Counted from the first letter of the stretch, positions 30,827 through 45,760 are shown. The stretch: 64,000 bases of DNA from an uncultured Chitinophagales bacterium (GCA_964629885.1 CAZVRJ010000001.1:19638-83637), one strand, 5' to 3'. Notes: generated by a model not told the origin, from the sequence alone. Numbers and translations are program-made.

Positions 30827-31636
30827 TTAACGCAGCACGAAACGGAACGTGATAGTGCCCCATTGGGGCTCTTGCGGCACACCGCTTGGTAGGCGTGCGA
30901 AACGCCAGCTGCGGATAGTGGAAAGAACCTCTTTCTCGAGCGACGGACTCATCTTACGAAGTGGTACGATCTGATTCACGCGACCATCGGGCATCACCTG
31001 GAATCGTACCGATATAACCGCCTCAACCTCTTCGTTGTAATTCGGCATGGGCTGCTGAAGCGGGGCCCTCACAATATCGCCTTCCCATTCAAGCGAGAAT
31101 GGAGCCGCTTTGGTCGGATCGTTGGCGGTGCCCTGGTCGGCCGCTGCACCCGTTGTGCCACGGATATCGCCGCTACGCTGGGCGCCTTCCTGCTGCGTTG
31201 GAGCTTGTTGTGTTCGGGGTGGAACGGTAACCTCTTGGCGCTGACGATCGGTGGTACGGTCGGGATTCACTCGAGGTGTTTCAGGGGTGCGGATGATGTC
31301 GTTTTCGACAGGCTGCGTCTGTTTAGGGGCCTCTACGGGTTTGCTGACTTCGTTATTACGCGTCTCAGGAACCGGCTTAACCTCTTCGACCGGCTTAGGA
31401 TCAATCGGATCTATTGGCGATGGATTCGGGTTTGTGGCAACAAGCTCGGGCTTATCGATCGAAAACTGGCTCTGCATGCCATCTTTGAAATCGCCGATGG
31501 TCACCTCAAGGTAAGCGTAGCGTTGGGGTTCGGTACCCACAATAATGAACAGCGCAAGTAAGAATACAAGGCCATGTATCGCCAGCGAATAGATGACGCC
31601 CTCGCGCTCTTCCTTGCTAAAATTGATACGACTCAT
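30827..31636 (-). CDS. tonB: Energy transducer TonB family protein
   Basis: 269 aa. N-terminal TM anchor, Pro-rich spacer (…NPNPSPIDPIDPKPVEEVKPVPE…), C-terminal TonB_C-like domain. It follows exbB and exbD. Confidence 0.8.
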   Translation of the reverse strand: MSRINFSKEEREGVIYSLAIHGLVFLLALFIIVGTEPQRYAYLEVTIGDFKDGMQSQFSIDKPELVATNPNPSPIDPIDPKPVEEVKPVPETRNNEVSKPVEAPKQTQPVENDIIRTPETPRVNPDRTTDRQRQEVTVPPRTQQAPTQQEGAQRSGDIRGTTGAAADQGTANDPTKAAPFSLEWEGDIVRAPLQQPMPNYNEEVEAVISVRFQVMPDGRVNQIVPLRKMSPSLEKEVLSTIRSWRFARLPSGVPQEPQWGTITFRFVLR

Positions 31637-31639
31637 TCA

Positions 31640-32047
31640 TTACTCCTGTTCGGTGGCAATTACCGATCTCATCTCTAAGACTTGGCCCATGGTGAGAACG
31701 TCCACCAATTTTTGGATGTCAGCCTGCTTGTCGGCTCTAACTACTAACGTAGCCGTAGGATTTTTCGTATGTTCTTCGCGTATCCTGGCCCGCATCGTCT
31801 GCAAGTCGGATGCCTCTCGTCCCATCACATAGTACTTTCCGTCTTTAGTGATGGCCACTTCAAGGATCTTCGTTTCAGCTGGTGCGCCACTTTCAGCTTG
31901 TGGAATTTCAACCTTGATACCGAAGTTGGTCACAAACGATGATGTAAGCAAAAAGAAGATGAGCAAGAGCATCACAATGTCGGTAAGCGACGAATGTGAG
32001 AACATCGATAGGACCTTGGGGCGGGTACTGTCGTCGCGGAAATTCAT
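31640..32047 (-). CDS. exbD: Biopolymer transporter ExbD/TolR
   Basis: 135 aa. …SLTDIVMLLLIFFLLTS… is the TM segment with the conserved Asp, on an ExbD-fold length. It overlaps exbB by 4 nt. Confidence 0.88.
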   Translation of the reverse strand: MNFRDDSTRPKVLSMFSHSSLTDIVMLLLIFFLLTSSFVTNFGIKVEIPQAESGAPAETKILEVAITKDGKYYVMGREASDLQTMRARIREEHTKNPTATLVVRADKQADIQKLVDVLTMGQVLEMRSVIATEQE

Positions 32048-32787
32048 CGTACTGGCGGGGTTGTGGTCGTTTTCTTTGGAGCAGGTGTCTGCAGTAGATC
32101 GATGAAATCGGTCGAAGCTGCTTCCAATTCAAAAATCTTACGATTGATTTTAGTGAGCAGGAAGTTGTAGAACCCATAGGCGATAATACCTACCAACAAT
32201 CCAAAGGCAGTGGTGATGAGTGCCTCCCAAATACCGCCTGCCAGCATGCTTGGGTTAACCTGTCCCTCCATAGTCTGGATCTGTTGGAAGGCCTCGATCA
32301 TACCAGTAACTGTACCCAAGAAGCCCAAAAGGGGCGCTACACCAGCGATGGTCGCAAGCCAATCCATCTTGCTTTCGAGACGATATGCTTCAGCCTTGCC
32401 TGCCGACATGATAGCATCCTCAATTTCTTTAATCGGGCGTCCTAATCGTTGAAGACCTTTAACCAAGATCCTAGCCAGTGGTTTGTCGGTCTGCTCGCAG
32501 TAGCGAATGGCTTGACGCACATTGCCTTCGGTGAGCATATCGTGAACATCTGCAAGGAAGCCATCCATTTTCATGGATGACTTTGAGATCACTCTCCATC
32601 GCTCAACGACCACAATAATGGCAATTACAGACAGCACTGCGATGGGAACCATCAATAAGCCGCCCTGTACGAGCATGTCGAGCAGAGTCATGCGTTCTGG
32701 TTCCGCATATGCCATGCTGAGTGTGTCCATCATGGCTGGATCGATCTGAAAGGCCAATAACAAGGTGCTGATCATGAAAACAGGCAT
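32044..32787 (-). CDS. exbB: MotA/TolQ/ExbB proton-channel protein
   Basis: 247 aa. Three TM segments and the conserved …IAGVAPLLGFLGTVTGMI…AL.TTAFGL… motif. Confidence 0.9.
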   Translation of the reverse strand: MPVFMISTLLLAFQIDPAMMDTLSMAYAEPERMTLLDMLVQGGLLMVPIAVLSVIAIIVVVERWRVISKSSMKMDGFLADVHDMLTEGNVRQAIRYCEQTDKPLARILVKGLQRLGRPIKEIEDAIMSAGKAEAYRLESKMDWLATIAGVAPLLGFLGTVTGMIEAFQQIQTMEGQVNPSMLAGGIWEALITTAFGLLVGIIAYGFYNFLLTKINRKIFELEAASTDFIDLLQTPAPKKTTTTPPVR

Positions 32788-32832: not shown

Positions 32833-34029
32833 TTATTGCAGTCCATACTGTCGGACCACTTCTGATTGAAATTTTCTATCAAGAGTGAGGTTAGCCTGAC
32901 GCGCTGCTTCGCGGGTATCGAATTGTCCCAGATGCAGTTCCCACGCAATTTCGCCCTGCACACGTACCCGGAACAAGCGGGCTCGTGTGTTAGCAGCGAC
33001 GACTTCCTCAAATATTTCGTTGGCAACACGCTCGGTGAACATGGTGGCAGAAACGATCGTGAAATAGCTGGGCATGTCTGTCTGCCAAGGACCCACAAGT
33101 CCAAACGACCCAACCAAAGCCTCAACTTGCTCTTGCTCTAGCCCTTGTTCTAGCTCTTGCTCTTGCTCTTGTCCTTGCTCTTGTTGCTGTTCTTGCTCTT
33201 GCGTCTCGCTTCTCGTGTCTCGTGTCTCGTCAATCGTCGGCGAGTCAAGCGTAATGCTTCCCGGGTCGTTCCGGGTTACATACTCGGGAAATACATCATG
33301 GAACGACGGTACCCCGGCTCCATCGAGCCAGCCATTGTACCATGAGAAGCCGGCCCCTGCGAGTAGGGTCAAAGTTAACGCCACAACACCAAATAGCTTT
33401 CGCAAACGGTCGCCTTTGTGCACGTAGGCGTCGTCGATACGTATGTTGATCGGAACCGTATGGGGATCTTGCCATTTGAGTGGCGGCGTTTTGAGTCCAA
33501 TAGATATCGGAGGTGGCTCTGGCAGGGACTCAGCCATGACAGGCTCGGGTTCCAGCTGGTTAATCAGTTGATCGTGGAGAGTTGTTTCAATCTCGGCGTC
33601 ATGGGATTCAACTTCGGGAATCAGTTCTTCGAAGGCAACGGGGCTATCGGTCTCCACTGCCTCGTCGGTCTCGATGACGATTGGGGGTGCCTCTGGTTCG
33701 TTGATCACGAAGACCGCAGTCTCTGGCATTTCGAACTCCTCTGTGTCGGAGGTTACCATCTCCCTATCGGCCCCTTCAAGCATGATTGGCTGCATACCGT
33801 GGTACCGGAAATTGATGTCCATCACCAGCTGCGGATCTGGTTCGAACATCACATTATTTCCATCCATATAAAAAGTACCTAAACCCGGTAGATCCGCTTT
33901 TCCGTGCTCCTTAAGAGTTCGGTGCAAACTCTCTAAGACGTCGAGCAAATCGCTACCTGCTGTCTTGATCTCGATTCTTAGCCTATCTGATAGCAGATCT
34001 ATGAGCTTGTAGTGATCGATCATAATCAT
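32833..34029 (-). CDS. HU-like (HU-CCDC81-type) / SPOR domain protein
   Basis: 398 aa. N-terminal HU-like segment (…ADLPGLGTFYMDGNNVMFEP…), a central TM (LFGVVALTLTLLAGAGF), a Q/E-rich linker, and a C-terminal SPOR-like domain (…FTIVSATMFTERVANE…RVRVQGEIAWELHLGQFDTREAA…). Confidence 0.7.
   Translation of the reverse strand: MIMIDHYKLIDLLSDRLRIEIKTAGSDLLDVLESLHRTLKEHGKADLPGLGTFYMDGNNVMFEPDPQLVMDINFRYHGMQPIMLEGADREMVTSDTEEFEMPETAVFVINEPEAPPIVIETDEAVETDSPVAFEELIPEVESHDAEIETTLHDQLINQLEPEPVMAESLPEPPPISIGLKTPPLKWQDPHTVPINIRIDDAYVHKGDRLRKLFGVVALTLTLLAGAGFSWYNGWLDGAGVPSFHDVFPEYVTRNDPGSITLDSPTIDETRDTRSETQEQEQQQEQGQEQEQELEQGLEQEQVEALVGSFGLVGPWQTDMPSYFTIVSATMFTERVANEIFEEVVAANTRARLFRVRVQGEIAWELHLGQFDTREAARQANLTLDRKFQSEVVRQYGLQ
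33129..33231. repeat. Intragenic low-complexity DNA: GCTCTT-type hexamer tract followed by a heptamer repeat
   Basis: The hexamer tract includes a perfect (GCTCTT)x3 at 33153-33170. (TCTCGTG)x3 follows at 33211-31. Read on the minus strand, these encode QEQEQQQEQGQEQEQELEQGLEQEQ and DETRDTRSET. Confidence 0.85.
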
Positions 34030-34217
34030 GAATCCGGACTGAAGTTCAATCGATCGGCTGGAGGCGTCATCACTACGGTTCCGTCTGCTTGCGATCTTCG
34101 CTCCTGGGTATGGTGTTCAACCTTGAAGGTACCGAGCGATGGGATAGAAACGACACCCCGTTTCATGAGTTCTTCACGAATGATGTTTGCCAATTCAATC
34201 TTGAGGTCTTCATTCAT
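34026..34217 (-). CDS. Small HU-like (HU-CCDC81-type) protein
   Basis: 63 aa. …VVSIPSLGTFKVEHH… resembles an HU-fold beta-arm region. Its TGA overlaps the ATG of the next gene in an ATGA junction at 34026-34029. Confidence 0.5.
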   Translation of the reverse strand: MNEDLKIELANIIREELMKRGVVSIPSLGTFKVEHHTQERRSQADGTVVMTPPADRLNFSPDS

Positions 34218-34218
34218 A

Positions 34219-35871
34219 CTAAAATCTGATTACCACCCCTCCGTAAACTTGAAGCGGGCGTTCGGTGTAACCTTTCCACATTTGATATTCACTACCAAGT
34301 AGGTTTAATCCTTTTACATAAAAGCCCACTTGCTGAGCTACCATGATCTCTGCTTGTGCATTTAAAAGCATATAACCGTCAAGAAACTCACCCTCTACAC
34401 CGGTTTCACGGTCGCCGATGTAGTGAACCCAGCTTTTGATGGCAATTCTACGAAATGGGGTAATCTGTGTCTCAGCTATGAGGCCAGTATTCTCCAAGAA
34501 TGGGACTTTTGATCCATCATCCAGCTTGTGGTTCTGATTATAGATAGTGCCATGCAATGTTAATAACGATGGGATGATCGTAACCTGCGCGCCGGCTTGA
34601 ATGCGGAGCTGGCGCATATTGTCGTCGTACATTACATCGTATAGAGCACCCGGAACTAAAAGTGGCCTCTTTTGGAAATAGCCGTACTTAGGAGATAACC
34701 TGTATTGTACTCCACCCGACACCGTGATTGCATTTAAAAGATTGAGATCGAGTCGTCCGTCGGCAACCCATTTACTCTCATTTTCAGGATTAATATCTAA
34801 CCCAGAGAAACGATTGGCATTGTGAACACCTTCGAGACCCATATTGGTGGCCTCACCATAAAGATGACCTGTAACGATGATGTTCTGAAGGCCGAAATAT
34901 TCAATTTTTGCGTCCGGATAGATGTATGGCTTGCTGCCGGAGGCGTCAGATCCATAGTATAGCCGCCCACCGAGGGTGATCCTGCTGTTGTAATTTTGTC
35001 GTGATTGATAACTCGGCATAACGCCGGCTAGTGCCCAAGATTGAGACGTCCCGTCGGTCCGCTGATATTGTGAGACGTCTAAACGCCCATGCACAAGAAA
35101 GATGTCATTGATGCGGTTACCGGCCCATTGGGTGGTTGAACGCGCCGTAAGGCGGTGTTCTTCGTTGGTGAATTCCGAAATGTTGGCACCAACTTTGAAA
35201 TAATCGTAACCTGCAATAACGTCGGTGTGAGTCAACGTATTGGTAACATGCCTATACTGCGCTTTGAAACCAGCACCCATATAATCTTTTTGGACGTCCG
35301 GGTTATTGGTATCGTTGAAGTCGTCGTGAACTGTACCCAATACCCTCAGGTTGCCCCGGTTTCCCATCTTGGTTGAGATTCCACCCTGAAAATTCATAAG
35401 CCTGTAAGCACTATTCACATCGAGGTGGCCACCACCGGCATCATAGGTGAATCCACCGATAAATGATGTCTGTGAGTTAATTGGTGCCTCAATAGATGCA
35501 CTCGCTTCCGGGCTGTTAAATCGCCCATATCCGCCTTTTGCATACAGACTAGTGCGCTGCGGATAGATAATTCTGCGCCGAGTCGGTGCTACGGGTCTCT
35601 CAAGATCGTCGATCGGCATGTTGGCTCTGATCTGCGCCTCAGTTTCCATAAACGGAAGCCTATTGGGATCGAGGGCATATAGCCGTTGGTTGTTGGTGAA
35701 TCCTAGGATCGGCTGCCGGATCAAATTGGCAAATCGCACCCTAAAATCACCTCTAATCTCGATGTCTTGTGGATCGATTTCGGGAAGAAGCGTTCCAGTT
35801 TGTGTCTGGCCATGCGAAATAGACCCGCACATTAGCAATAGTAACAGTGAAAAAAAGGTTTTCTTCATCAT
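34219..35871 (-). CDS. Outer-membrane beta-barrel protein (family not identified)
   Basis: 550 aa. Signal peptide MMKKTFFSLLLLLMCGSISHGQ, a long alternating-strand region rich in G/Y/N, and a C-terminal …GGVVIRF aromatic terminus typical of OMPs. Confidence 0.5.
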   Translation of the reverse strand: MMKKTFFSLLLLLMCGSISHGQTQTGTLLPEIDPQDIEIRGDFRVRFANLIRQPILGFTNNQRLYALDPNRLPFMETEAQIRANMPIDDLERPVAPTRRRIIYPQRTSLYAKGGYGRFNSPEASASIEAPINSQTSFIGGFTYDAGGGHLDVNSAYRLMNFQGGISTKMGNRGNLRVLGTVHDDFNDTNNPDVQKDYMGAGFKAQYRHVTNTLTHTDVIAGYDYFKVGANISEFTNEEHRLTARSTTQWAGNRINDIFLVHGRLDVSQYQRTDGTSQSWALAGVMPSYQSRQNYNSRITLGGRLYYGSDASGSKPYIYPDAKIEYFGLQNIIVTGHLYGEATNMGLEGVHNANRFSGLDINPENESKWVADGRLDLNLLNAITVSGGVQYRLSPKYGYFQKRPLLVPGALYDVMYDDNMRQLRIQAGAQVTIIPSLLTLHGTIYNQNHKLDDGSKVPFLENTGLIAETQITPFRRIAIKSWVHYIGDRETGVEGEFLDGYMLLNAQAEIMVAQQVGFYVKGLNLLGSEYQMWKGYTERPLQVYGGVVIRF

Positions 35872-36011: not shown

Positions 36012-39000
36012 TTACTTCACCAATGCAACTTTTCCGGTTGAGCGAAATGACCCTGCGCGCATTTCAATAATGTAAACACCACTTGCCAATCGGGAAGCAT
36101 CCCATGTAATTTGGTGATAACCCGCCGTGAAATTTCGATCCAACACTACAGCGACTAGGCGTCCGGTAATATCAAAGATTTGGATGCGAACGGGTGAGTC
36201 TGTGGGCAGTGCGAAACTTAGGTTCGTTGTTGGATTGAATGGATTCGGATACGCATCGTACAATCGAAACTCCTGAGGAAGCTGCGATGATGCGTGTTGA
36301 TCTATGGAGCCATTAACCCCAACTACCCAATCGAAGGTGTGCGATCCCTTCTGTAGGTACATCTCTAAGCTTCCATCACTGCCAAAACGAAGCGTCCTGC
36401 CAGATTTTGCATCAAATAAGTACGTGTCCATCGCATTGGGTAAGTCGCCAATACGAAGCTCATACTCACCTGATTCTGAAATATCCACAACTAGTTTTTC
36501 AGAAATAAGGGTGGTGCTAGATGGAAATGAGAGGCTTGACCAGTTTTTGATATGGCTGTGTATATCATCCTTATATAGTGCTATGTTGGCACTACTGAAC
36601 CTACCTGGAGGCGCCACATGATCGTGATCGTCGAACCCTATGGTTGCATCATCAGCTAGACGAATCGAAATGGATCCAAGAGGTGATTGATTCCGATGCA
36701 ATCCTAATGAAATAACTTGATCTCTAACATCACCACGACTACCCAACTCAATACTTGCGACTGCAGCCACCTGCGATTGTGGTTGATAGGGGATTTCTAA
36801 TTCAGCTAGATTCGCCCTATTGAAGAAGTAATATCCCGTGTTCGCCTGCAGCGTGCCCGATTGTACCCATAGACCCTCAAAGGCAAATATGGGGTCGGTA
36901 ATGCTGTTTAGCTGCTGAACGGCAGACCATGTTACCGGGAGTCCGAATGGGTTGCCAATAATGTTCCAACCTGAATTTAGCGGAATGCGATAGGTATCCT
37001 GATTTGTAAGGGTTACCGAGGGAAGCGTTTGGTTAATAATCCAATCTCGCTTAGCCAGTATCCAGAATCCTCTTCCGGGTCGCAAATTGAATCCAGAGCT
37101 GTTGCGTGTTACTTCGATGGTATTGCTCAAACCATCCGAATTGCTACCAATTTCGGCATAGGCATTCCAGTCGGAGCCCTGTTTTCCGTAGTCTTCGAAA
37201 GTGAACACAATAGGCAAATTTGCATCGCCACCAATCGCAACCAATCGGTATGATGACTGTCTAGTATTTGCAAAAGGAATTGATTTCTGTATCGTTACCT
37301 GGTTGGGGTACAAAAACGTACGCAGCTGGTTTACGCCAGACCACAATCCTGGACCACTTACATTCAGTGCGCGCACTCTCCAGAAATATTCTTGATTGAA
37401 GCTACTCAAGAACATCGTATAGGTGGTGTCGGTTCGCTCTTCTGATGTTAGTAGTACGGTGCTAAAATCTGACAGAGTAGATATCTGAAATTGATATCTA
37501 TCTGCATCTGTTTGGCTTCTCCATACAAATGTCTGCGTTCGATTTGCGTTCGTTATATTGGCAATCGGCGATACCAATTTAGGTGGTTCGGGAACCTTGG
37601 GTGCCGTTCTGAACTGGGTCGTATCAGACCATGCACTCAATCCGCTCACATTTCGGGATGCTACCCGTGCCCAGTAGGATTGTTCAGGCTTCAGATTGCT
37701 GAGGATGAGTGTAACGTCATTGTAATTCTGCGCATCTACAACTAATTCGCCGTCGAATCTGCTGGTCTCAGATATCTGAATATCATATCCCTGTGCCCTA
37801 GCAGCCGGCATCCATTGCAGAGCAAGCGGCATGAAAACCATCTGGGCACCATCAAGCGGGTTTAGAATACGGGTGGGTGCGGGTAGTTCGGGCAACGTGC
37901 GAAACGTCCATACTTCAGACCAAGCACTTTCGCCTGAGCTGTTGAAAGCCTTTACTCGCCAGTAGTGGATGGTGTTAAATGGTAGAGGCGCGGTTCCGGT
38001 AAGGTCGAGTTTTGTATCAGTAATATTCGGGTCATCGATTACAAGTTGCGACTCAAAATCGATACTCAAAGACAACTGCAACTGATATCGCTCCACAAAC
38101 GAACTGGTCTGCCACTTCATCAAAATAGGCTGCTGGATGTAGTCCAAACTATTTAGCGGCTGCAGCAGCTCGGGTGCTAACGGCGGTTCTGGAACCGTCG
38201 TGAACGATCGAACCTGCGACCATGCACCTTGTCCACCCGAGTTGAATGCAGCGACTCGCCAGTAGTAGGTCTGGCCTTTGTTCAAGTTCAGGACACTGTA
38301 AAATGTGTTTGTCACGTTTATGTCGGCCAATACGGCTGAGTTCAAGTCGGGAATATTGGAAAATTGGATGCGATATCCCTCACTGCGTGGTGACGGATTC
38401 CACCGCAGAAGCACCGGTATCGGCGCGTTAATCAACTGATTTGCCGGAGAAACAAGCGTTACCTGATCCGGAACTTGAACTACGGTGGTAAACGACCAAA
38501 CCTCAGACCAGTCGCCAAGACCAGCAAGATTTCTTGCTCTCACCCTCCAGTAGTAAGTAGTCTGTGGCAGAAGTGCTGTAAGCAGATACGCCGAAGCTGC
38601 TTGGCCGTTCGATGAGAATACGATCGTTTCAAACGAGGAATCTGTCGAAACCTCTACGGAGTACGACGTCGCTCCCTGCACGTTTGACCAATCTAATAAG
38701 AGGGGTGTTTTTGCATTTTCCAAATTGTTAATAGGGGTCAACAAAACTGGAACGGCAGGAGTCACAACTACAGTCCTGAATGTTCTAGTCTCTGACCATG
38801 CGCTTTCGCCGGCAAGGTTCAGGGCCGAAACTCGCCAGTAATACCTCTCAGATGTGAGAAGCTGTGGTAAAATGTAGAACGTGGATTGAACACCGATAGA
38901 GTCAACTAATTTATTGGTGAAATCAGCAGAAAGCGAGAGCTGCACCCTATAAGCTGATGCGCCCGAAGTAGGCTGCCAAACGAGCTGGATGGGTGATTCC

Positions 39001-41282
39001 AAATCAATCGCATCATTCCCCGGAAGACTCAGTATTGGAGCTGTTGTTGCGCTCGCGTTAATTGTCACAAATAAGAACGTTGTGGACCAATTGCCATCGC
39101 CGCCAGAATTCGACGATCTCACACGCCAGTAATAGGTGCGATTCGGGATTAGATCTCTCGCTTGAAAGGTTGTGTCGGTCGTTTCGGTGTTAACCACAAA
39201 GGACGCAAATGACTGTGTGGTCGAAATCTGAATTCTGTACTTATCGGCTCGTAGTGATTTTTGCCATTTCATATATGGTGATAGAGACACACCATTTTGA
39301 TTATTGCTTGGCGATGCTAACAGCACTTGTGAGGGTGGCGATATGATTGTAGTCAGGCTGCGGGTGTTCGACCAAGCCGACTCCCCACCAATATTTCTTG
39401 CTCTCACACGCCAATAATAGGTAGTATGCGATTGTAGGCGTGGTATCGTTAAATCGGTTGCTGTTGTAATCTGGTCAAATTCAAGATCTTGGAATAGTTC
39501 TGATTTCGATATCTGAATCTGAAAGTCATTGGCATTCAGTACGGGACCCCACTGAAATTTCACCATCAACGTATCACTGTTCACTAGACCATTTTCAGGT
39601 GAAATCGGCAGAGGTGCCGCAGGTGGCAGATTTACAGTAAACTGGGATATTGGCGACCAATCGCTTTCTGACCCAACTCGTTCGGCCTTTAGCCGCCAAT
39701 AGTATGTGTTGTTATCCGACAATCCTGACACGGTGAATGTGGTCTGGCTTAACCCGCTTTCATCTGCTATGAGTGTATTTTCAAAATTTTGGGAATTCGA
39801 TAGTTGAAACCAATATGACTGTGCCTGAGGAACTGAACTCCAATTGAACACCACATTAGAACCTAAACCATTTTCAAGTTGAGTTGGGCTCACCGTTTTT
39901 GGGAAAGCCAAACGTGTACGAAATGAAACAACACTCGACCAACTGCTCTCGCCTAAGTTGTTGATTGCCCGTACGCGGTAGTAATAGTTGGTAAGCCCAT
40001 TCTCGAGAATTAGCTGCAGCTTATTTAGATCTGGTACCAAAACGTCATACTCTGGCGACTCAAAGCCCGAACTAGTGGAGACTTGAATTTGAAATGAGAA
40101 GGCATTCGGAACAAGTGACCATTGAAATGTCGGACTTGTTGTTACTTCGATTGAATTATTAGCTGGGAACTGTAGGTTGGGCATGTCGGGCAAGTCTAAA
40201 GCCAATCTTCCCATATAGTCATAATTACGGCCTGCTAGGCTAGTAAACAATCCACCCATGTGGATTACCTCGTTCCGAATCACTACGGTATTCACCTTGT
40301 TGTTGGCGCTCCCAGGATTGCTCCATACTCCATTTTCAAGGTTAGCAACATTCAGAATCCCGGGCGCAGAGCTCGATGTGAACGCGCCTCCGATAACAAG
40401 GTCATCACCATCGCTGGAAATGGTGTAAACAGTGCCGTTTATTCCGACACCTACATTTGACCAAACTGTGCCATTCCAAGAGGATACAGCTCCGCTAAAA
40501 GCCCCGCCTACAACAAGTTCGCCTGCATGTTGAGTAATGGCGTGTACAGATCCACCTAAACCTTCACCAATTGCACTCCAATTGGTACCATTCCAGCGTG
40601 CAATCCTGTTCACAGCTGCCCCTCCAGCCGTAGTGAATACACCGCCTACAATTAAATCATTACCCACCGAATAAAGGGCATGTACTGGGGCATTCAAGCC
40701 ACTTCCGAGCGACTCCCATTGAGTGCCCGTCCAACGCGCAATATTATTCAAACCCGTTCCACCCGACGATGTGAAATCTCCGCCTATGTAAACGCTGCCA
40801 TTGTGAACTTGTATCGCCCTCACAATTCCGTTTACCCCAGCTCCGAGTGCCTGCCAAGAAACGCCATCCCACCGAACAACGTGGTTCACAGTCTGGCTGC
40901 CAACCTCCGTAAAATCACCGCCGACGTATACGAAGTTGTTCTGAACTCCTAGCGCAAAAACCGGCCCGTTTAACCCAGATTGCAAGGATCTCCATTCGTT
41001 ATTGGTCCACCTTGCAATGTTGTTTACAAGAATACCATCGGCAGAAGTAAATTCTCCACCAGCAAACCATGTATCATTGTTATATATGAGTGCATTCACA
41101 GGTCCGTTGAGTCCAGATCCGAACTCTAATAAAGACTGGGGTTGTGCAGTAACTGGCGACTGTTGCGCATACGTTGCACCTCCCCTACCTAGCACCATGA
41201 GCATCATCAATAAGCACGGAAACCATGCTACCATTACCGTTCTGATCACCGCAGGAATGCTATGTTTGCGAGTCGAATGCAA
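36012..41282 (-). CDS. Giant T9SS-secreted surface protein: 7-blade beta-propeller, 10 FN3-like modules, unknown ~350-aa region, and a C-terminal sorting domain
   Basis: 1,756 aa with an N-terminal signal/anchor. The repeats and the C-terminal domain are detailed in the next three entries. Confidence 0.85.
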   Translation of the reverse strand: MHSTRKHSIPAVIRTVMVAWFPCLLMMLMVLGRGGATYAQQSPVTAQPQSLLEFGSGLNGPVNALIYNNDTWFAGGEFTSADGILVNNIARWTNNEWRSLQSGLNGPVFALGVQNNFVYVGGDFTEVGSQTVNHVVRWDGVSWQALGAGVNGIVRAIQVHNGSVYIGGDFTSSGGTGLNNIARWTGTQWESLGSGLNAPVHALYSVGNDLIVGGVFTTAGGAAVNRIARWNGTNWSAIGEGLGGSVHAITQHAGELVVGGAFSGAVSSWNGTVWSNVGVGINGTVYTISSDGDDLVIGGAFTSSSAPGILNVANLENGVWSNPGSANNKVNTVVIRNEVIHMGGLFTSLAGRNYDYMGRLALDLPDMPNLQFPANNSIEVTTSPTFQWSLVPNAFSFQIQVSTSSGFESPEYDVLVPDLNKLQLILENGLTNYYYRVRAINNLGESSWSSVVSFRTRLAFPKTVSPTQLENGLGSNVVFNWSSVPQAQSYWFQLSNSQNFENTLIADESGLSQTTFTVSGLSDNNTYYWRLKAERVGSESDWSPISQFTVNLPPAAPLPISPENGLVNSDTLMVKFQWGPVLNANDFQIQISKSELFQDLEFDQITTATDLTIPRLQSHTTYYWRVRARNIGGESAWSNTRSLTTIISPPSQVLLASPSNNQNGVSLSPYMKWQKSLRADKYRIQISTTQSFASFVVNTETTDTTFQARDLIPNRTYYWRVRSSNSGGDGNWSTTFLFVTINASATTAPILSLPGNDAIDLESPIQLVWQPTSGASAYRVQLSLSADFTNKLVDSIGVQSTFYILPQLLTSERYYWRVSALNLAGESAWSETRTFRTVVVTPAVPVLLTPINNLENAKTPLLLDWSNVQGATSYSVEVSTDSSFETIVFSSNGQAASAYLLTALLPQTTYYWRVRARNLAGLGDWSEVWSFTTVVQVPDQVTLVSPANQLINAPIPVLLRWNPSPRSEGYRIQFSNIPDLNSAVLADINVTNTFYSVLNLNKGQTYYWRVAAFNSGGQGAWSQVRSFTTVPEPPLAPELLQPLNSLDYIQQPILMKWQTSSFVERYQLQLSLSIDFESQLVIDDPNITDTKLDLTGTAPLPFNTIHYWRVKAFNSSGESAWSEVWTFRTLPELPAPTRILNPLDGAQMVFMPLALQWMPAARAQGYDIQISETSRFDGELVVDAQNYNDVTLILSNLKPEQSYWARVASRNVSGLSAWSDTTQFRTAPKVPEPPKLVSPIANITNANRTQTFVWRSQTDADRYQFQISTLSDFSTVLLTSEERTDTTYTMFLSSFNQEYFWRVRALNVSGPGLWSGVNQLRTFLYPNQVTIQKSIPFANTRQSSYRLVAIGGDANLPIVFTFEDYGKQGSDWNAYAEIGSNSDGLSNTIEVTRNSSGFNLRPGRGFWILAKRDWIINQTLPSVTLTNQDTYRIPLNSGWNIIGNPFGLPVTWSAVQQLNSITDPIFAFEGLWVQSGTLQANTGYYFFNRANLAELEIPYQPQSQVAAVASIELGSRGDVRDQVISLGLHRNQSPLGSISIRLADDATIGFDDHDHVAPPGRFSSANIALYKDDIHSHIKNWSSLSFPSSTTLISEKLVVDISESGEYELRIGDLPNAMDTYLFDAKSGRTLRFGSDGSLEMYLQKGSHTFDWVVGVNGSIDQHASSQLPQEFRLYDAYPNPFNPTTNLSFALPTDSPVRIQIFDITGRLVAVVLDRNFTAGYHQITWDASRLASGVYIIEMRAGSFRSTGKVALVK
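36015..36260 (-). other. T9SS type-A C-terminal sorting domain (CTD) of the giant protein
   Basis: …LYDAYPNPFNPTTNLSFALPTDSPVRIQIFDITGRLVAVVLD…GYHQITWDASRLASGVYIIEMRAGSFRSTGKVALVK matches the Por-secretion CTD pattern (NPF….I.+.D..GR.V…G…..WD…..+GVY). Confidence 0.75.
37314..40187 (-). repeat. Ten tandem ~96-aa (~288-bp) FN3-like modules at protein level
   Basis: The recurring pattern is P..L.SP.N………L.W…..A..Y..Q.S….F………T…….L…..YYWRVRA.N..G.S.WS….F.T. Module ends fall at residues 456, 549, 645, 740, 837, 933, 1029, 1129, 1226 and 1323. The DNA copies are diverged, and I saw no long identical stretches. Confidence 0.8.
40197..41114 (-). repeat. Seven tandem ~46-aa propeller-blade-like repeats at protein level
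   Basis: The repeats are LNGPV.AL….N.+YVGG.FT..GG….NIARW.G..W..LG.G x7, covering residues ~57-362. Confidence 0.7.
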
Positions 41283-41290
41283 ATTTTGAA

Positions 41291-42193
41291 TCAGTTTGAT
41301 GGCGGTGTTGGAGGTCCAGGTAATTGGGCGTCAGGCCGCAGCATAAACCAAGCTGTAGTAGATGTGCTAGCGATCCCAACTAGTGTCCACAACCACCATC
41401 TCGACCGTCTTGCGGGAACCACCTGTGGGATGGCTGCTACCTCGATTGGTCTAAATTGGATTGGGAATGTATATAGGGAGTCAGCTTTAACCTCCTGATT
41501 CAGGATGACTTCTCTATAGCCTTCTTTAGATACGGAGATGATGTACACACCTGGTGCAAAACTGATCGTATCTCGGTTGCCTATAACCGGGTGACGACGC
41601 ACTAAGTTATTCATGTCGAGGAACTCGACCGTGAAACCTGGGTGATTTGCTTCGAACGAAAGCCTGCCCGTTCTTGGAGTATCGTATACCGGCTCTTCAA
41701 CAACTTTTAACCTGTAGGTGACCATCTTCTTCTGATGCAGCTCGTGAACCTTATAGTAGATATCGAAATCTTTGACGTTCCGAATCTGAATGTGGCGGTC
41801 TATTCTAGTGATGTTCGGAATGAACAAAAACACAAACCGAAAACTTATACTGCCATCGGGACGAATATTCACATTTCGTGATTCAAACCTAATGTTCTGA
41901 ATGCGCAACTGCTCGTTACGGAACCAATTCAGGACCTCTTCGGCAGAGAAATAACGTTGAACAGTAGGGTCGAGCACGAGTCTTACGATACCTTCGTCGT
42001 CGGTAACGGGTGGAATGATATTATCTACATTCTGAATGTCGACGAGCTCAAGCACAAACTTGCCTGGTTTTAGCAACCTTTGCCCACCATTGACCTGTGC
42101 AAAGGCACTTTGCGTTAGCCCAGCAAAGCACAACAATACCAACCATAACAAAATGGCGCTCTTGGTACAGCCTTGAGCTACTGTGCGGTTCAC
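41291..42193 (-). CDS. Exported protein with a PEGA-like segment and a C-terminal membrane anchor
   Basis: 300 aa with a GTG start. Signal peptide …LLCFAGLTQSAFAQ. …ISFAPGVYIISVSKEGYREVILNQEVKADSLYTFPIQF resembles a PEGA domain. C-terminal TM RWWLWTLVGIASTSTTAWFML plus a Pro-rich tail. It lies 8 nt upstream of the giant gene. Confidence 0.45.
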   Translation of the reverse strand: MNRTVAQGCTKSAILLWLVLLCFAGLTQSAFAQVNGGQRLLKPGKFVLELVDIQNVDNIIPPVTDDEGIVRLVLDPTVQRYFSAEEVLNWFRNEQLRIQNIRFESRNVNIRPDGSISFRFVFLFIPNITRIDRHIQIRNVKDFDIYYKVHELHQKKMVTYRLKVVEEPVYDTPRTGRLSFEANHPGFTVEFLDMNNLVRRHPVIGNRDTISFAPGVYIISVSKEGYREVILNQEVKADSLYTFPIQFRPIEVAAIPQVVPARRSRWWLWTLVGIASTSTTAWFMLRPDAQLPGPPTPPSN

Positions 42194-42195
42194 TT

Positions 42196-42220
42196 AAAGT
42201 TGACCCCCCTGAAAGTTGAC
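42196..42220 (-). promoter_or_regulatory. Direct repeat of a 9-mer (AAAGTTGAC on the + strand, GTCAACTTT on the gene strand), each copy with a C-run beside it
   Basis: The two copies are at 42196-42204 and 42212-42220, 16 bp centre to centre. The first lies 2 nt upstream of the GTG at 42193. They sit in the only sizeable gap (116 nt) of the cluster. Confidence 0.3.
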
Positions 42221-42309
42221 AATCCCCTCAGTTCCTTGCATTGGAATGCTGCAGATAGAAAAAGATACCAATAATTGATCCCGAGCATGTAATTTATTAA
42301 TGTTGAAGG

Positions 42310-43599
42310 TCAGCGATTGATTTGCACACGAAAAATTGGCGGCTGTCCCGAGCTTGGCGGTGCAGGAGCCTTCAGTTGTAGGATATGATCCATTCTAACG
42401 GCTAGTACTGCTCGAATATCTGACTTTTTCCAGGCATACCGTCCTTGAGGTGTGATAACAAAGGTATCTGTAATTCTGAATATATGCTCAAAAGCCAGTT
42501 CAGGGTGTCGCACCATCCATATACCCCTAACCACTACTTCGTCGTCTTCACCTTTTCTGGCACTGATCGTGTTATAATATGCAGGCAACCCATGACCCAC
42601 TACTGTCCCCAACAAGTCGATGACATTCTCGCCACCTATGGTGTACTTTTCGACTTCTTTGCCCTCGATGGCAAGCTCGATGACAAACGATGGGTCGGTA
42701 AGCAGATCTCGGTATCTCAATTCGGATGGAAGTGATAGCGTAGCCCAGCGATGTGCAACTAGTGAGGCAATTCGTCCTTCGGGAACAGCAAGTTGTTCGC
42801 GGCTGGCAGGTACCCAATGCCCGGTATTGGACCTTCGGGTGAATGAACGTTCGTTTGTGTAGTAATCGATTTCAGGAAGCCTGTATGAGTAGGAGTTCGC
42901 CTTTTGCGATAGCCCGTAAAACACACTTGGCTCGTATTCTATCGGTAAAGAGTTTCCCTCTGATGTTGTGAGCATGCTAACCAAGTAATCACGATAGAGC
43001 ACGCTTTGCCCCTGAAGCAAAAGATCCAATGTGGGTGTAATCCTTACACGAAGTCTCGAATTTCCGGCATCTGACGCCAACAGTGGGCCATCTTCGTCGA
43101 TCGTCAAATAGAAACTGCTTGGGTTGAGTCCAGGGTTGGCTCTCACATATTGCAGCAGTTGCGATTCTTTGCTGCCTAGAAACGATGTTTCGACTCGAAT
43201 ATAGTTCGAGGCAACTACACCCCTGAGGTATGCTTCGTCCTTTACCAATGCAGACCATATAATTCGTGCGGCAATGATTTGAGCAGGTTTAGATATGTAT
43301 GCATCGGCAACCGAACCCAAATCCAAAAATTCCCCAACGTCATAAATTTGGCCATCGTGTGTGAGATGCAGCTCCAACTTGCGCTCGCCCTCCGACGTGT
43401 TGTACGTTCTGATGATGCTCTTGCCCAAAAGGGTGCTTCCTCGTACTTCGTCGTCAGCCATAAGTTGCGCATTCACCCTATCAACCCACGATTCATACAC
43501 AACTTTGGGAAAAGATGGTGCAAATCGATCGCTGGCAAACATTGCGTTCGGCATGCACAAAAGCACTATCGATAAGAGAATGATTGAGTGACGGGTCAT
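42310..43599 (-). CDS. Exported hypothetical protein
   Basis: 429 aa. Signal peptide MTRHSIILLSIVLLCMPNAMFA. I recognise no motif. It is called as coding because of its length, the clean signal peptide and tight spacing with its neighbours. Confidence 0.45.
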   Translation of the reverse strand: MTRHSIILLSIVLLCMPNAMFASDRFAPSFPKVVYESWVDRVNAQLMADDEVRGSTLLGKSIIRTYNTSEGERKLELHLTHDGQIYDVGEFLDLGSVADAYISKPAQIIAARIIWSALVKDEAYLRGVVASNYIRVETSFLGSKESQLLQYVRANPGLNPSSFYLTIDEDGPLLASDAGNSRLRVRITPTLDLLLQGQSVLYRDYLVSMLTTSEGNSLPIEYEPSVFYGLSQKANSYSYRLPEIDYYTNERSFTRRSNTGHWVPASREQLAVPEGRIASLVAHRWATLSLPSELRYRDLLTDPSFVIELAIEGKEVEKYTIGGENVIDLLGTVVGHGLPAYYNTISARKGEDDEVVVRGIWMVRHPELAFEHIFRITDTFVITPQGRYAWKKSDIRAVLAVRMDHILQLKAPAPPSSGQPPIFRVQINR

Positions 43600-43610
43600 T
43601 ATCTCTAAGT

Positions 43611-44636
43611 CTATCTAATAATTTCGAACATATTGAGGTCGATGAGCGTGCCATCCTCAAATGGTTCGGATTGCCAAGCTCTTACATAAATGAGAGGCTG
43701 ATCTTCGTTGCTGAAGTCGATCATGAACGATAAGTAACCTTCGTCGGAATAGGTGGATGACGACCATTTTTGGAATACCTGCACCCAATAAATTTCTTCG
43801 TAATCGGGATGTTTGAGGATGTTAATACCGCTGAAGTCCACGTTCACAAAGGCATTGTTGCGAAATATCACACTACGTAGTCGGTCGATGTACTCGGTCT
43901 TGGTCTGACGATTCAATCGGAATCGCTCGCGTGTCACCTCGTTGTCACGAGTTCTAACCATACTTCCACTGTCGCCATACTCCGTAATCCTGGTTCCGGT
44001 TATGATCAGCGCCTTGTCACTGAACTGCAGCTCAATATAATCGGCATCTTTGCGGTTGTAGGCGGTTTTTATCTGCTCAAGGTATGTGATGATGGTACGC
44101 AAGCGATAATCGTCCTCAAGACTCTCGGCGTTTTGAATAATCATATTGAACTGATGCTCTTCAATGGCAAAACGGGCATCGGTCAGTTTGCCATCTGCAT
44201 CGAAATTGAGGATCAGCTCAAGCGACCTATTTCCGTCGCTGGGTCCGGACGTGACATACATCCTCCTGATTTCGTAGGTGTTCTGGTTCAGCATGATCAC
44301 CTGCGACCGAAGCTCCCCGGCATTGGCGCGGATCCCTGAAGTCTTGACAAGATCGGTGAGACGTTCAGCTCCGTACGCCCCTTCGCCCGTGCCGATGTTG
44401 GCGGGTAGTTCGACTCTGCCTTTGTTGGGATCATAACGGTTGATGGCCGTCATTACGGCCCCGGCATTGCGCTCCAACATGGAGACGACATCTCTGCCTG
44501 GCCCATCGGTGAGGATAACCCTAACCTCTTGGGTAGCTTGTGCAAAAGCTTGTACCTGTGCAAAAGTGATTGTTATTAGAGCAACGAATAAAAATCGAAT
44601 CATGAAGTGTGGCTGCAAAAATCGTGTGGACATCAT
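43611..44636 (-). CDS. Exported hypothetical protein (C-terminal half possibly NTF2/SnoaL-like)
   Basis: Signal peptide …FLFVALITITFAQVQAFAQ. The ATG at 44636 overlaps the cyclase TGA in an ATGA junction; the ORF track starts at 44654. …YLEQIKTAYNRKDADYIELQFS…YWVQVFQKW… is reminiscent of an NTF2-like fold, weakly. Confidence 0.45.
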   Translation of the reverse strand: MMSTRFLQPHFMIRFLFVALITITFAQVQAFAQATQEVRVILTDGPGRDVVSMLERNAGAVMTAINRYDPNKGRVELPANIGTGEGAYGAERLTDLVKTSGIRANAGELRSQVIMLNQNTYEIRRMYVTSGPSDGNRSLELILNFDADGKLTDARFAIEEHQFNMIIQNAESLEDDYRLRTIITYLEQIKTAYNRKDADYIELQFSDKALIITGTRITEYGDSGSMVRTRDNEVTRERFRLNRQTKTEYIDRLRSVIFRNNAFVNVDFSGINILKHPDYEEIYWVQVFQKWSSSTYSDEGYLSFMIDFSNEDQPLIYVRAWQSEPFEDGTLIDLNMFEIIR

Positions 44637-45760
44637 TGTAGAGATCGTACCCATATAGCTCTCTTTCCAGAATAACGCTGGGCAAGTGTGCTTATTTCCT
44701 CGTTTGTATCTAGGTTTACAAACCTTGAGTTTGTGTAAACCAAGAATGCATCGACTGGAGAGGAATCGGTTGCCGTTGGGTCAATAACCGCCACCAATAC
44801 ACCCTCAATGCTTGAAAGGCTGTCTCTGGTAGCATATATCGCCATGGCCCCCCTGTCGGTTTCGCGCCGAAGCGCCCGCTGCAACTCTTGCCAATTTCCC
44901 GATGAGGTTACGGAAGCGTATTGTAGTCTGAACCTGTTGAGGGCATCAGACGAACCCTGGTTTTGGGGAGGCACCTGGCGAACAGGTGTTTGTTCGGAAT
45001 CGTTTCTATCGTTTACAGCTGTGGTGTCGGGCTGCGATGGTTCAGAGACAGATGTGTCGGGAGCAGCGCCAGTGGTATCGGGCATTTGTACTGTGAGGGA
45101 ATCGGTTGACCCATTTGTGTTTGACAAATCGAACACTCTGCCACCCCACATGAAATATGCTGCAACAAAAACAGCAATTACGCCAAGAGTTGCGACACCT
45201 GTAGCTGATGTTGGACTAAAGTGATACCTCGGCTTCTCGTCAAGATCGATGCAGAACAGCTCGACGGGTTTTTGGATACTCTTTAACCTCTGTGGACCCA
45301 ATCTGCGGATCGTAAGGTCGATCTTGTTATAAATCTGGTCGTAAACCGATCTGGTGATGACAATTTCGCCGGGCTGAGCCTGAGTGTATATTCGGGATGC
45401 AAGGTTTACACCATCACCATAAACGTCGTTCGACTCAAATACCACGTCGCCAATATGGAGTCCAATTCTGACTTGAATCTTTCGCTCGTTGGCAACAGAT
45501 CCATTGTACTGACGGAGCTCACGCTGGATTGCAATAGCACATCTCGCAGCCTGAAGGGCACTTTGAAACTCCACCAAAAAGGCATCGCCCATGGTCTTAA
45601 TTTCATTGCCCCCAAGCGACCTGAAGATGGGTCGAAGCATTTCGCGGTGCAGCTGCAACAGTTCGAGAGCCAACTCTTCGTTACGCTGTGTCATGGCACC
45701 GTATCCGACTACGTCGGTGAACATGATGGCAGTAAGTCTACGCTCAGCCGAAGACAACAT
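44633..45760 (-). CDS. Membrane-anchored class III adenylate/guanylate cyclase
   Basis: 375 aa. RRLTAIMFTDVVGYG (metal Asp), IKTMGDAFLVEF (second metal Asp and purine-contacting Lys), RIGLHIGDV, GDGVNLASR. Then one TM segment (GVATLGVIAVFVAAYFMWGG) and a ~150-aa C-terminal ectodomain of unknown type. Confidence 0.85.
   Translation of the reverse strand: MLSSAERRLTAIMFTDVVGYGAMTQRNEELALELLQLHREMLRPIFRSLGGNEIKTMGDAFLVEFQSALQAARCAIAIQRELRQYNGSVANERKIQVRIGLHIGDVVFESNDVYGDGVNLASRIYTQAQPGEIVITRSVYDQIYNKIDLTIRRLGPQRLKSIQKPVELFCIDLDEKPRYHFSPTSATGVATLGVIAVFVAAYFMWGGRVFDLSNTNGSTDSLTVQMPDTTGAAPDTSVSEPSQPDTTAVNDRNDSEQTPVRQVPPQNQGSSDALNRFRLQYASVTSSGNWQELQRALRRETDRGAMAIYATRDSLSSIEGVLVAVIDPTATDSSPVDAFLVYTNSRFVNLDTNEEISTLAQRYSGKRAIWVRSLQ

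Follow-up and report, generated by a model that had tools for sequence, protein, structure and literature searches.

A predicted envelope module linking a class III cyclase, NTF2-like and PEGA-type proteins and a giant T9SS cargo in an uncultured Chitinophagales bacterium

We analysed five tightly packed genes in a 64,000-nt stretch of DNA from an uncultured Chitinophagales bacterium (CAZVRJ010000001.1:19638-83637); this full stretch is referred to below as the window. The five open reading frames (ORFs) lie on the minus strand at 36012-45760 in the order cyclase, g2, g3, g4 and g5. They encode a class III nucleotide cyclase with one transmembrane (TM) segment, three exported proteins (g2 to g4) and a giant type IX secretion system (T9SS) cargo protein. 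Our analysis indicates that these genes represent a predicted conserved envelope module of Bacteroidota-group (FCB) bacteria, of which the giant cargo appears to be a part in many environmental lineages. Judged from its sequence, the window locus would be a variant of the receptor-type class III cyclases that is built on undescribed protein families. The explanation that we favour, with confidence evenly balanced between belief and doubt, is that a periplasmic complex regulates the cyclase and that the envelope module is thereby wired to cyclic AMP (cAMP) synthesis in this lineage.

Recurrence of the module in other lineages

The tail of the window cyclase beyond the TM segment is 165 aa long and consists of a variable linker followed by a conserved domain of ~85 aa, which we call the ecto domain. 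The original prediction had recognised no motif in this tail. This holds in that the ecto domain has no Pfam match and no significant match in the PDB, but the tail does contain a conserved domain family.

ORFs were called in 93 loci, iterative profiles were built from the window proteins, and all neighbouring genes were clustered. The neighbourhood sample comprised ~97 loci, which were chosen through g2 and are hence not an unbiased survey; taxon labels come from the records of metagenome-assembled genomes (MAGs). The iterative profile identified 35 sampled proteins with an ecto domain, which in each of them lies at the very C-terminus; for 32 of these 35, the g2 gene is directly next on the same strand. 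The two genes often overlap or lie within a few nt of each other. The carriers fall into four unrelated architectures: cyclase-TM-ecto, found in the window clade only; Ser/Thr kinase-TM-ecto, found in loci L014 and L018 (Pkinase E 8.5e-56 for L018); exported proteins of ~440 aa whose N-terminus is weakly LPP20-like (13 proteins from 13 loci); and exported proteins of ~240-360 aa (10 proteins in 10 loci). The ecto protein of L027 clusters with the kinase-ecto proteins; it is cut off at the contig start and its kinase domain is not seen. PKD-ecto proteins occupy the same position ahead of g2 in five further loci. Since the adjacency extends across four unrelated architectures, the ecto-g2 linkage does not depend on local synteny. 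That a cyclase, kinases and simple exported proteins share one outer domain amounts to a natural experiment on the role of the periplasmic complex. By hhalign, the ecto domain matched families c6 and c8 with 99.8% probability. A profile search with the ecto alignment against a word-indexed protein database returned 4 fragments only.

A longer part of the gene order was found in four loci, L094 to L097, whose g2 proteins show 38-44% identity and whose flanking genes are wholly different, the order being retained on the plus strand in each. L094 carries a 630-aa protein with PKD and ecto domains, g2, a g3-like gene, a g4-like gene and a 1465-aa protein with a C-terminal sorting domain (CTD). L095 carries a 693-aa ecto protein, g2, a g3-like gene, a PEGA gene, a 397-aa protein and a 1784-aa cargo. 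The corresponding series is a 616-aa PKD and ecto protein, g2, g3-like, PEGA, 293-aa protein and 4471-aa protein in L096, and a 673-aa ecto protein, g2, g3-like, PEGA, 392-aa protein and 1805-aa cargo in L097. Partial modules were found in L009 (labelled Calditrichaeota), L012 (labelled Balneolaceae), L018, L028, L038, L041 and L088. Tight packing alone could be due to chance, but the recurrence of the order in distant lineages indicates clustering beyond chance and supports a functional coupling of the module genes. Homologues of g2 to g4 thus do lie beside T9SS cargo and cyclases in other genomes. The cyclase is not a core part by this comparison: its fusion to ecto is clade-specific, and elsewhere ecto is found on exported proteins or on Ser/Thr kinases.

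Our analysis also linked the small module proteins to one family of T9SS cargo. A domain of ~350 residues that precedes the CTD of g5 (the pre-CTD domain) was matched over its full length in L018 (two proteins), L019, L028, L041 (two proteins), L095 and L097, with E down to 1e-158. The proteins that bear it differ in their N-termini and passenger domains, which are of the FN3, BNR, FG-GAP or Big type. No Pfam match and no significant PDB match was found for this domain. No such cargo was found near g2 in L010, L093 or the loci of a different cluster type, called gut-type, which is described in the last section. Gut-type loci account for most of the g2 family, and no cyclase lies nearby in them either. 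The link to the cargo is therefore real, if not universal.

Genes for cyclic nucleotide (cNMP) signalling were found at the module in three forms: the cyclase-ecto fusion, a CHASE2-cyclase gene next to the module in two loci, and a neighbouring gene for a CRP-like regulator in one. A CHASE2-Guanylate_cyc gene adjoins the module divergently in L094 and on the same strand in L096. Identity is 49% between the two CHASE2 cyclases and 50% between their g2 proteins, so that this linkage has persisted while the sequences diverged and the orientation changed. A gene with cNMP_binding and HTH_Crp domains lies directly upstream of the module in L095. By a rough estimate made with no formal test, three kinds of cNMP link in about a dozen independent lineages are far above chance adjacency. 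No further cyclase or CRP gene was found when all sampled loci were searched. Other kinases are present in L070 and L083, and membrane proteins with CHASE2 only are present in 11 gut-type loci. As a separate observation, a Peptidase_M48/SH3 gene accompanies each CHASE2-Guanylate_cyc gene (L094 3696-7016; L096 4590-7957), and this pairing is conserved.

The literature gave no description of the ecto domain, of the g2 and g3 families, of the cargo pre-CTD domain or of the gene set, in agreement with the original prediction that no such system had been described. A 2020 paper on conflict systems treats PEGA, NTF2 and FGE-sulfatase (FGS) domains in other contexts only. Ecto, g2, g3 and the pre-CTD domain are four families that matched no Pfam or NCBIfam model; together they are spread over hundreds of contigs from metagenomes of soil, sediment, rumen, termite gut and human gut.

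Predicted features of the module proteins

The gene coordinates, the ATGA overlap and the gaps of 11, 116 and 8 nt that had been noted before were all reproduced (Table 1). The junction of the cyclase and g2 genes, read directly, is ...caATGAtg..., with the TGA at 44635-44633 and the ATG at 44636-44634. An upstream ATG at 44654 is an alternative start of g2 and would give a protein of 347 aa. A crude scan revealed no terminator-like hairpin in any junction of the module, and neither an Rfam scan nor a tRNA scan of the window gave a match. A sigma-70 promoter scan of the window was set aside, as it gave fewer sites than a shuffled control and sigma-70 promoters are not the type that applies in this phylum.

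Table 1. Coordinates of the module genes, their domains and the adjoining downstream genes in the window
Feature	Position	Strand	Description and basis
Cyclase gene	44633-45760	-	375 aa; ATGA overlap with g2
Cyclase, cytoplasmic class III catalytic domain (aa 1-175)	45236..45760	-	Predicted; PF00211
Cyclase, single TM segment (aa ~183-210)	45131..45214	-	Kyte-Doolittle 19-residue window, peak 2.01
Cyclase, periplasmic linker (aa ~211-285)	44906..45130	-	Predicted; Pro/Ser/Thr/Asp-rich; poorly conserved and of variable length in orthologues
Cyclase, C-terminal ecto domain (aa ~286-375)	44636..44905	-	Ends ...YSGKRAIWVRSLQ; iterative profile; undescribed family
g2 gene	43611-44636	-	341 aa from the ATG within ATGA; 11 nt to g3; exported, two NTF2-like domains, hallmark of the module; AlphaFold2 (AF2) model, pLDDT 85.1
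g2, conserved stretches (residues 187-197, 206-214, 276-300)	within 43611-44636	-	
g3 gene	42310-43599	-	429 aa; 116 nt to g4; exported, multi-domain, NTF2-like cone domain(s); AF2 pLDDT 84.6
g4 gene	41291-42193	-	300 aa, GTG start; 8 nt to g5; exported, PEGA-type, conserved C-terminal hydrophobic anchor and Pro-rich tail; profile linkage
g5 gene	36012-41282	-	1756 aa, TTG start; 140 nt to g6
g5, signal peptide and beta-propeller region (aa 1-372)	40166..41282	-	Rax2 and DUF5122 matches; hydrophobic aa 8-34
g5, ten FN3-like repeats (aa 373-1323)	37314..40165	-	Self-profile, E 1e-29 to 1e-37; fn3 and Ig_Rha78A_N matches
g5, conserved pre-CTD domain (aa ~1325-1677)	36252..37310	-	g5C profile
g5, T9SS type A C-terminal sorting domain and stop codon	36012..36251	-	PF18962, TIGR04183
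g6	34219..35871	-	550 aa; signal peptide; C-terminal ...VVIRF; outer-membrane-barrel-like
HU-like ORF	34026-34217	-	63 aa; SIPSLGTFKV motif; between g6 and the HU-CCDC81 gene g7
g7	32833-34029	-	HU-CCDC81-like N-terminus; hydrophobic aa 211-230; Glu/Gln-rich run (QEQEQQQEQGQEQEQELEQGLEQEQ)

The cyclase matched PF00211 with 78.7 bits (cut-off 21.9, E 5.6e-22). Its best PDB match was 3mr7 (E 2e-33), which together with Ma1120 and Rv1900c/LipJ represents the closest solved catalytic domains. Six residues, D16, K55, D59, D112, N119 and R123, are invariant in all eight cyclase orthologues at identities down to 47%. They sit in FTDVVGY, IKTMGDAF and NDVYGDGVNLASR and are alignable with Ma1120 and 3mr7. 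We take D16 and D59 to be the metal-binding Asp residues, N119 and R123 to be the transition-state Asn and Arg, and K55 and D112 to be the substrate-selecting Lys/Asp pair, which predicts ATP as the substrate. The cyclase therefore looks active and under constraint, and the motifs that had been called intact (FTDVVGY, IKTMGDAF, GDGVNLASR) indeed have their residues present and invariant. A single hydrophobic segment at 183-210 accounts for the one TM helix with an extracytoplasmic tail that was proposed earlier. The catalytic domain would be cytoplasmic, since the cyclase has no N-terminal signal peptide. No CHASE2 domain was matched in the window cyclase.

A hydrophobic, signal-like segment was found at the N-terminus of each of g2, g3, g4 and g5, as had been claimed for the first three. 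After predicted cleavage, four of the five exported proteins begin with Gln: g2 (AFA|Q), g4 (AFA|Q), g5 (TYA|QQ) and g6 (SHG|Q); g3 has Ser instead. The four Gln residues agree with the "Q-rule" of Bacteroidota, by which Gln follows signal-peptide cleavage (PMC10653852).

None of g2, g3 and g4 reached a Pfam or NCBIfam threshold, and no confident match to a characterised unrelated family was found for them in Pfam, NCBIfam or the PDB. The earlier statement that they match no family is thus correct as to the thresholds, but it does not extend to their types, which are NTF2-like for g2 and g3 and PEGA-type for g4. The NTF2 fold, an alpha+beta cone, was assigned to g2 and g3 because Foldseek matched their models at probability 1.0, and with TM-scores of 0.5-0.75 (target-normalised), to structures of the NTF2, ketosteroid-isomerase and SnoaL kinds, many in number.

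The top Foldseek matches of the g2 model were Bd1075 and Pgp2 (E ~1e-5). Against PF24125 (Cds6_C), g2 scored 22.9 bits (E 1.1e-4), which is below the cut-off of 27, and precomputed PF24125 matches are present in 11 of 120 listed g2 homologues. The PDB profile of the Pgp2 NTF2 domain gave E 0.19. The modelled C-terminal NTF2 domain of g2 therefore resembles the Csd6/Pgp2/Bd1075 type without being a member of it. The NTF2 domain of Pgp2 binds peptidoglycan (PMC8038945), and that of Bd1075 localises the protein (PMC8938487). No YkuD-type or other catalytic domain was found in g2 with Pfam or NCBIfam. The g2 family is large, with 333 homologous protein clusters and at least 574 metagenome stretches. 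Across 40 homologues (31-84% identity) there are 30 invariant columns, which include RTAYNRKD and FSDKALIITG and, within the NTF2 cone at the C-terminus, H276, Y283, Q289, W291, Y296 and D298. Such a set has the look of a conserved pocket for a ligand or for catalysis.

For the g3 model, only NTF2/ketosteroid-isomerase-like cones were matched in the PDB by Foldseek. There were 27 close homologues of g3, all with at least 40% identity. In the genome collection, the g3 profile was found in 3 species genomes only, all of them close relatives labelled "uncultured Chitinophagales" MAGs, and an exact look-up of the g3 sequence returned nothing. Distant g3 homologues occupy the same position in L009, L012 and L094-L097.

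The g4 protein of the window has no match to PEGA (PF08308, cut-off 20.8 bits) at E<0.1. Its orthologues score 13-14 bits at the expected position (E 0.04-0.1), and relatives linked to g4 by profile search in L018, L028 and L046 reach 46-56 bits (E 1e-12 to 1e-15). The PDB sequence search with g4 was empty or insignificant. At the C-terminus, the pattern RRxRWWxWTLxGIA...LPxPPxPPxN is conserved. Of the two features that had been suggested for g4, the C-terminal TM anchor agrees with the conserved hydrophobic segment, and the PEGA-like stretch is below threshold in g4 itself but significant in these relatives. PEGA is described as a domain that associates with peptidoglycan (PMC7159879). Taken together, the modelled folds of g2 and g3 and the PEGA type of g4 suggest a scaffold in the periplasm, possibly associated with the wall, and not one at the surface. 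The original prediction had left the partners as periplasmic or surface proteins; the NTF2 and PEGA folds favour the former and not the latter.

All three parts of the proposed make-up of the 1,756-aa protein, the propeller, the ten FN3 repeats and the T9SS CTD, were found. The CTD scored above both curated cut-offs, with 42 bits against 27 for PF18962 (Por_Secre_tail) and 38.9 against 23 for TIGR04183. No Por or Gld gene is present within the 64-kb window.

Possible roles of the module

The window cyclase is closest to a known receptor architecture. Its catalytic domain is 50-58% identical to proteins with an N-terminal cyclase and C-terminal periplasmic TPR or TolB-like (PD40) regions; these have the same order of cyclase, TM segment and outer region, and some of the matches extend through the TM segment. 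The locus thus appears to be this architecture with the outer part swapped: theirs is TPR or PD40, whereas here it is a low-complexity linker and an ecto domain, whose gene partner, g2, is obligate. Of 63,023 cyclase matches (from 1.84 billion representatives), the best 150 include only two that bear the ecto domain, with identities of 70% and 48%.

LuxP/LuxQ, TorT/TorS and ChvE/VirA are sensors that depend on a periplasmic partner protein. By analogy, the window system would resemble them in that the periplasmic domain of a membrane enzyme is encoded beside a soluble partner that it likely binds. It differs in the partners, which are NTF2-like here and of the periplasmic-binding-protein fold there; in the output, which is exchangeable between a cyclase and a Ser/Thr kinase here and is a histidine kinase there; and in the additional g3, g4 and secreted cargo. 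The CHASE2 cyclases CyaD1, CyaD2 and CyaK of Sinorhizobium are membrane class III enzymes that require further envelope proteins, such as NsrA of the outer membrane, for the perception of a signal and that act through a CRP-type regulator, Clr. CHASE2 cyclases (L094, L096) and a CRP-like gene (L095) adjoin the same module. The window cyclase differs in having no CHASE2, and none of g2 to g6 was seen to resemble NsrA as far as this was tested. The window system has no accessory component in common with these pathways or with the partner-dependent sensors. In comparison with the L,D-carboxypeptidases Csd6, Pgp2 and Bd1075, the C-terminal domain of g2 is like their accessory NTF2 domain, and a second NTF2-like domain replaces the YkuD-type domain. 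In Pseudomonas aeruginosa, surface sensing through type IV pili and Pil-Chp raises cAMP by way of CyaB, which acts on through Vfr. The likeness is one of concept only, in that a class III cyclase of the inner membrane receives input from an organelle at the surface, and it is what the outside-in signalling of the original prediction would look like; there are no homologous parts, and the cargo here is that of a T9SS where a pilus is found there.

In the explanation that we favour, the ecto domain would bind g2 in the periplasm, and g2, g3 and g4 would assemble into a scaffold that the anchor of g4 fixes to the inner membrane. This scaffold probably touches peptidoglycan, in view of the Csd6/Pgp2/Bd1075-like NTF2 domain of g2 and of the association with the wall that is ascribed to PEGA. 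Class III catalytic domains must dimerise. Changes in the complex would alter the pairing of the cyclase catalytic domains and with it the output of cAMP, which would be read by a CRP-type regulator encoded elsewhere. The change that is sensed might be the occupancy of a pocket in g2, the condition of the wall, or the conserved C-terminal domain of the cargo, whose presence or load would register in transit or once anchored. A signal linked to the cargo is the least certain step of this mechanism. Outside-in signalling from an adhesin, as the original prediction had it, may then take place, with g5 as the putative adhesin. In Bacteroidota and their relatives, cAMP signalling, envelope sensing and the monitoring of giant T9SS surface proteins are all poorly understood. 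The locus offers a concrete system with a measurable output, in which the outer domain of the cyclase has one fixed gene partner.

Several results weigh against regulation of the cyclase by the complex. No HAMP, S-helix or other signal-transducing element was found between the TM helix and the catalytic domain. The cyclase-ecto fusion is confined to one narrow clade, that of the window. Most ecto proteins have neither a cytoplasmic part nor a signalling domain, so that the primary role of ecto would be structural or periplasmic, and the cyclase could be tethered and not regulated. The likeness of g2 to Pgp2 is weak at the sequence level, and the ligands bound by NTF2 cones are diverse. No cAMP receptor or CRP-like protein is present in the window, and the CRP-like gene of L095 is absent from L097 despite 72% identity between the g2 proteins of these two loci. 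The 116-nt gap between g3 and g4 could have room for an internal promoter. Conservation within the window clade adds little, because the whole region of ~20 kb from FtsK-LolA to ExbB, housekeeping genes included, is colinear in all close relatives.

A bolder extension, which we consider unlikely, is that ecto, g2, g3, PEGA and the conserved C-terminal domain of the cargo together form an unrecognised envelope-spanning apparatus of FCB bacteria, running from a T9SS surface protein through a wall scaffold to interchangeable cytoplasmic outputs, which would be the adenylate cyclase in the window and a Ser/Thr kinase or CHASE2-cyclase in other loci. The module would then represent a contact- or load-sensing pathway for bacteria that have no pili and flagella. 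If this is true, the gut-type g2 clusters with caspase, CHASE2 and tubulin-like proteins would be other versions of the sensing core.

The serious rival is a tethering or cargo-handling role, since the cyclase has no transducing element and most ecto proteins have no cytoplasmic part. Ecto, g2, g3 and g4 would then escort, hold or anchor one family of giant T9SS cargo by its conserved C-terminal domain, in the periplasm or at the wall. Ecto would sense nothing, and fusion to the cyclase would only add regulation or position the enzyme. T9SS accessory genes specific to one cargo are known to lie beside it, such as sprF beside sprB, which speaks for such a role, as does the fact that cargo with the pre-CTD domain adjoins the module in at least eight loci of several lineages despite differing passenger domains. 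However, most g2 loci (gut types, L010 and L093) have no such cargo, four kinds of signalling gene recur at the module, and no module protein resembles a known T9SS component in Pfam or NCBIfam. On balance we regard this role, too, as unlikely.

Somewhat less probable again is a sensor of the wall or envelope state with no link to the cargo. The NTF2 and PEGA proteins would bind peptidoglycan, or else a lipid or metabolite of the envelope, and signal this through the cyclase, and the giant protein would be a frequent neighbour. Such a sensor fits the resemblance of the g2 NTF2 domain to the Csd6/Pgp2/Bd1075 type, the description of PEGA as associating with peptidoglycan (PMC7159879), the strongly conserved polar motif set in the C-terminal cone of g2 and the existence of g2 modules without any cargo. 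Against it, the conserved C-terminal domain of the cargo accompanies the module across lineages, and the Pgp2 likeness is at the level of the fold and weak in sequence.

A role in conflict or defence, as a Pycsar-like nucleotide alarm or as part of the caspase, tubulin and kinase conflict neighbourhoods of gut bacteria, seems very improbable. The cyclase has a weak PADLOC match to PycC (E 5.6e-8, 30 bits), and g2 occurs elsewhere with genes for periplasmic Sel1-caspase, CHASE2, Tubulin_2, FGE-sulfatase and kinase proteins, domain types that are common in conflict systems (PMC7159879). On the other side, g2, g3 and g4 have no PADLOC match, the Lys/Asp pair predicts ATP and not a pyrimidine substrate, and the setting from FtsK-LolA to ExbBD is a stable housekeeping one whose synteny persists at protein identities as low as ~47%, in contrast to the variable nature of defence islands. 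We rejected a Pycsar-type system because no cNMP-binding or other effector gene is present in the window.

That the five genes are unrelated neighbours, packed by chance or inherited synteny and each acting alone, would fit the synteny of the entire 20-kb region in all close relatives, but it is just as improbable, for the ecto-g2 order (32 of 35) and the g2-g3-PEGA-cargo order recur amid entirely different flanking genes.

Downstream genes and other g2 clusters

For g6, which follows g5, no Pfam, NCBIfam or PDB match was found, and the gene is present in the window clade only. It is possibly a clade-specific addition to the module, of uncertain membership. The HU-like ORF starts 1 nt past the stop codon of g6, its 3' end overlaps the start of g7 by 4 nt, and it is also present in L003 at 13629-13820. 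Since g6 is separated from the HU-like ORF by 1 nt and from g5 by 140 nt, it may instead belong with the downstream group of the HU-like ORF, g7 and the ExbB/ExbD/TonB-like genes at 30827-32787, and not with the cyclase module. The C-terminus of g7 is SPOR-like by eye only.

The gut-type g2 cluster was found in L055, L057, L064, L074, L076, L080-L082, L086 and L092, which come from human gut, rumen and other metagenomes. Its conserved order is a protein with CHASE2 only (~405 aa), an exported Sel1-repeat caspase (~650 aa), a DUF4384-like protein (~317 aa), the exported protein c2 (220-400 aa), g2 and a 467-aa TPR protein with an outer-membrane-like C-terminus. Neither the 467-aa protein nor c2 has a Pfam family, and both are unrelated to ecto, g3 and g4 by hhalign. 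The g2 neighbours c2 and c3 of these loci had been considered as relatives of ecto, g3 or g4 and were rejected, as hhalign gave no relation; the gut-type clusters thus have only g2 in common with the window locus. In L050, L060, L066, L085 and L091 we found a third type of g2 cluster, whose order is Tubulin_2 (~1040 aa), a zinc-ribbon/TM/Big_2 protein, c2, a small ecto protein, g2, and a PEGA or other protein.

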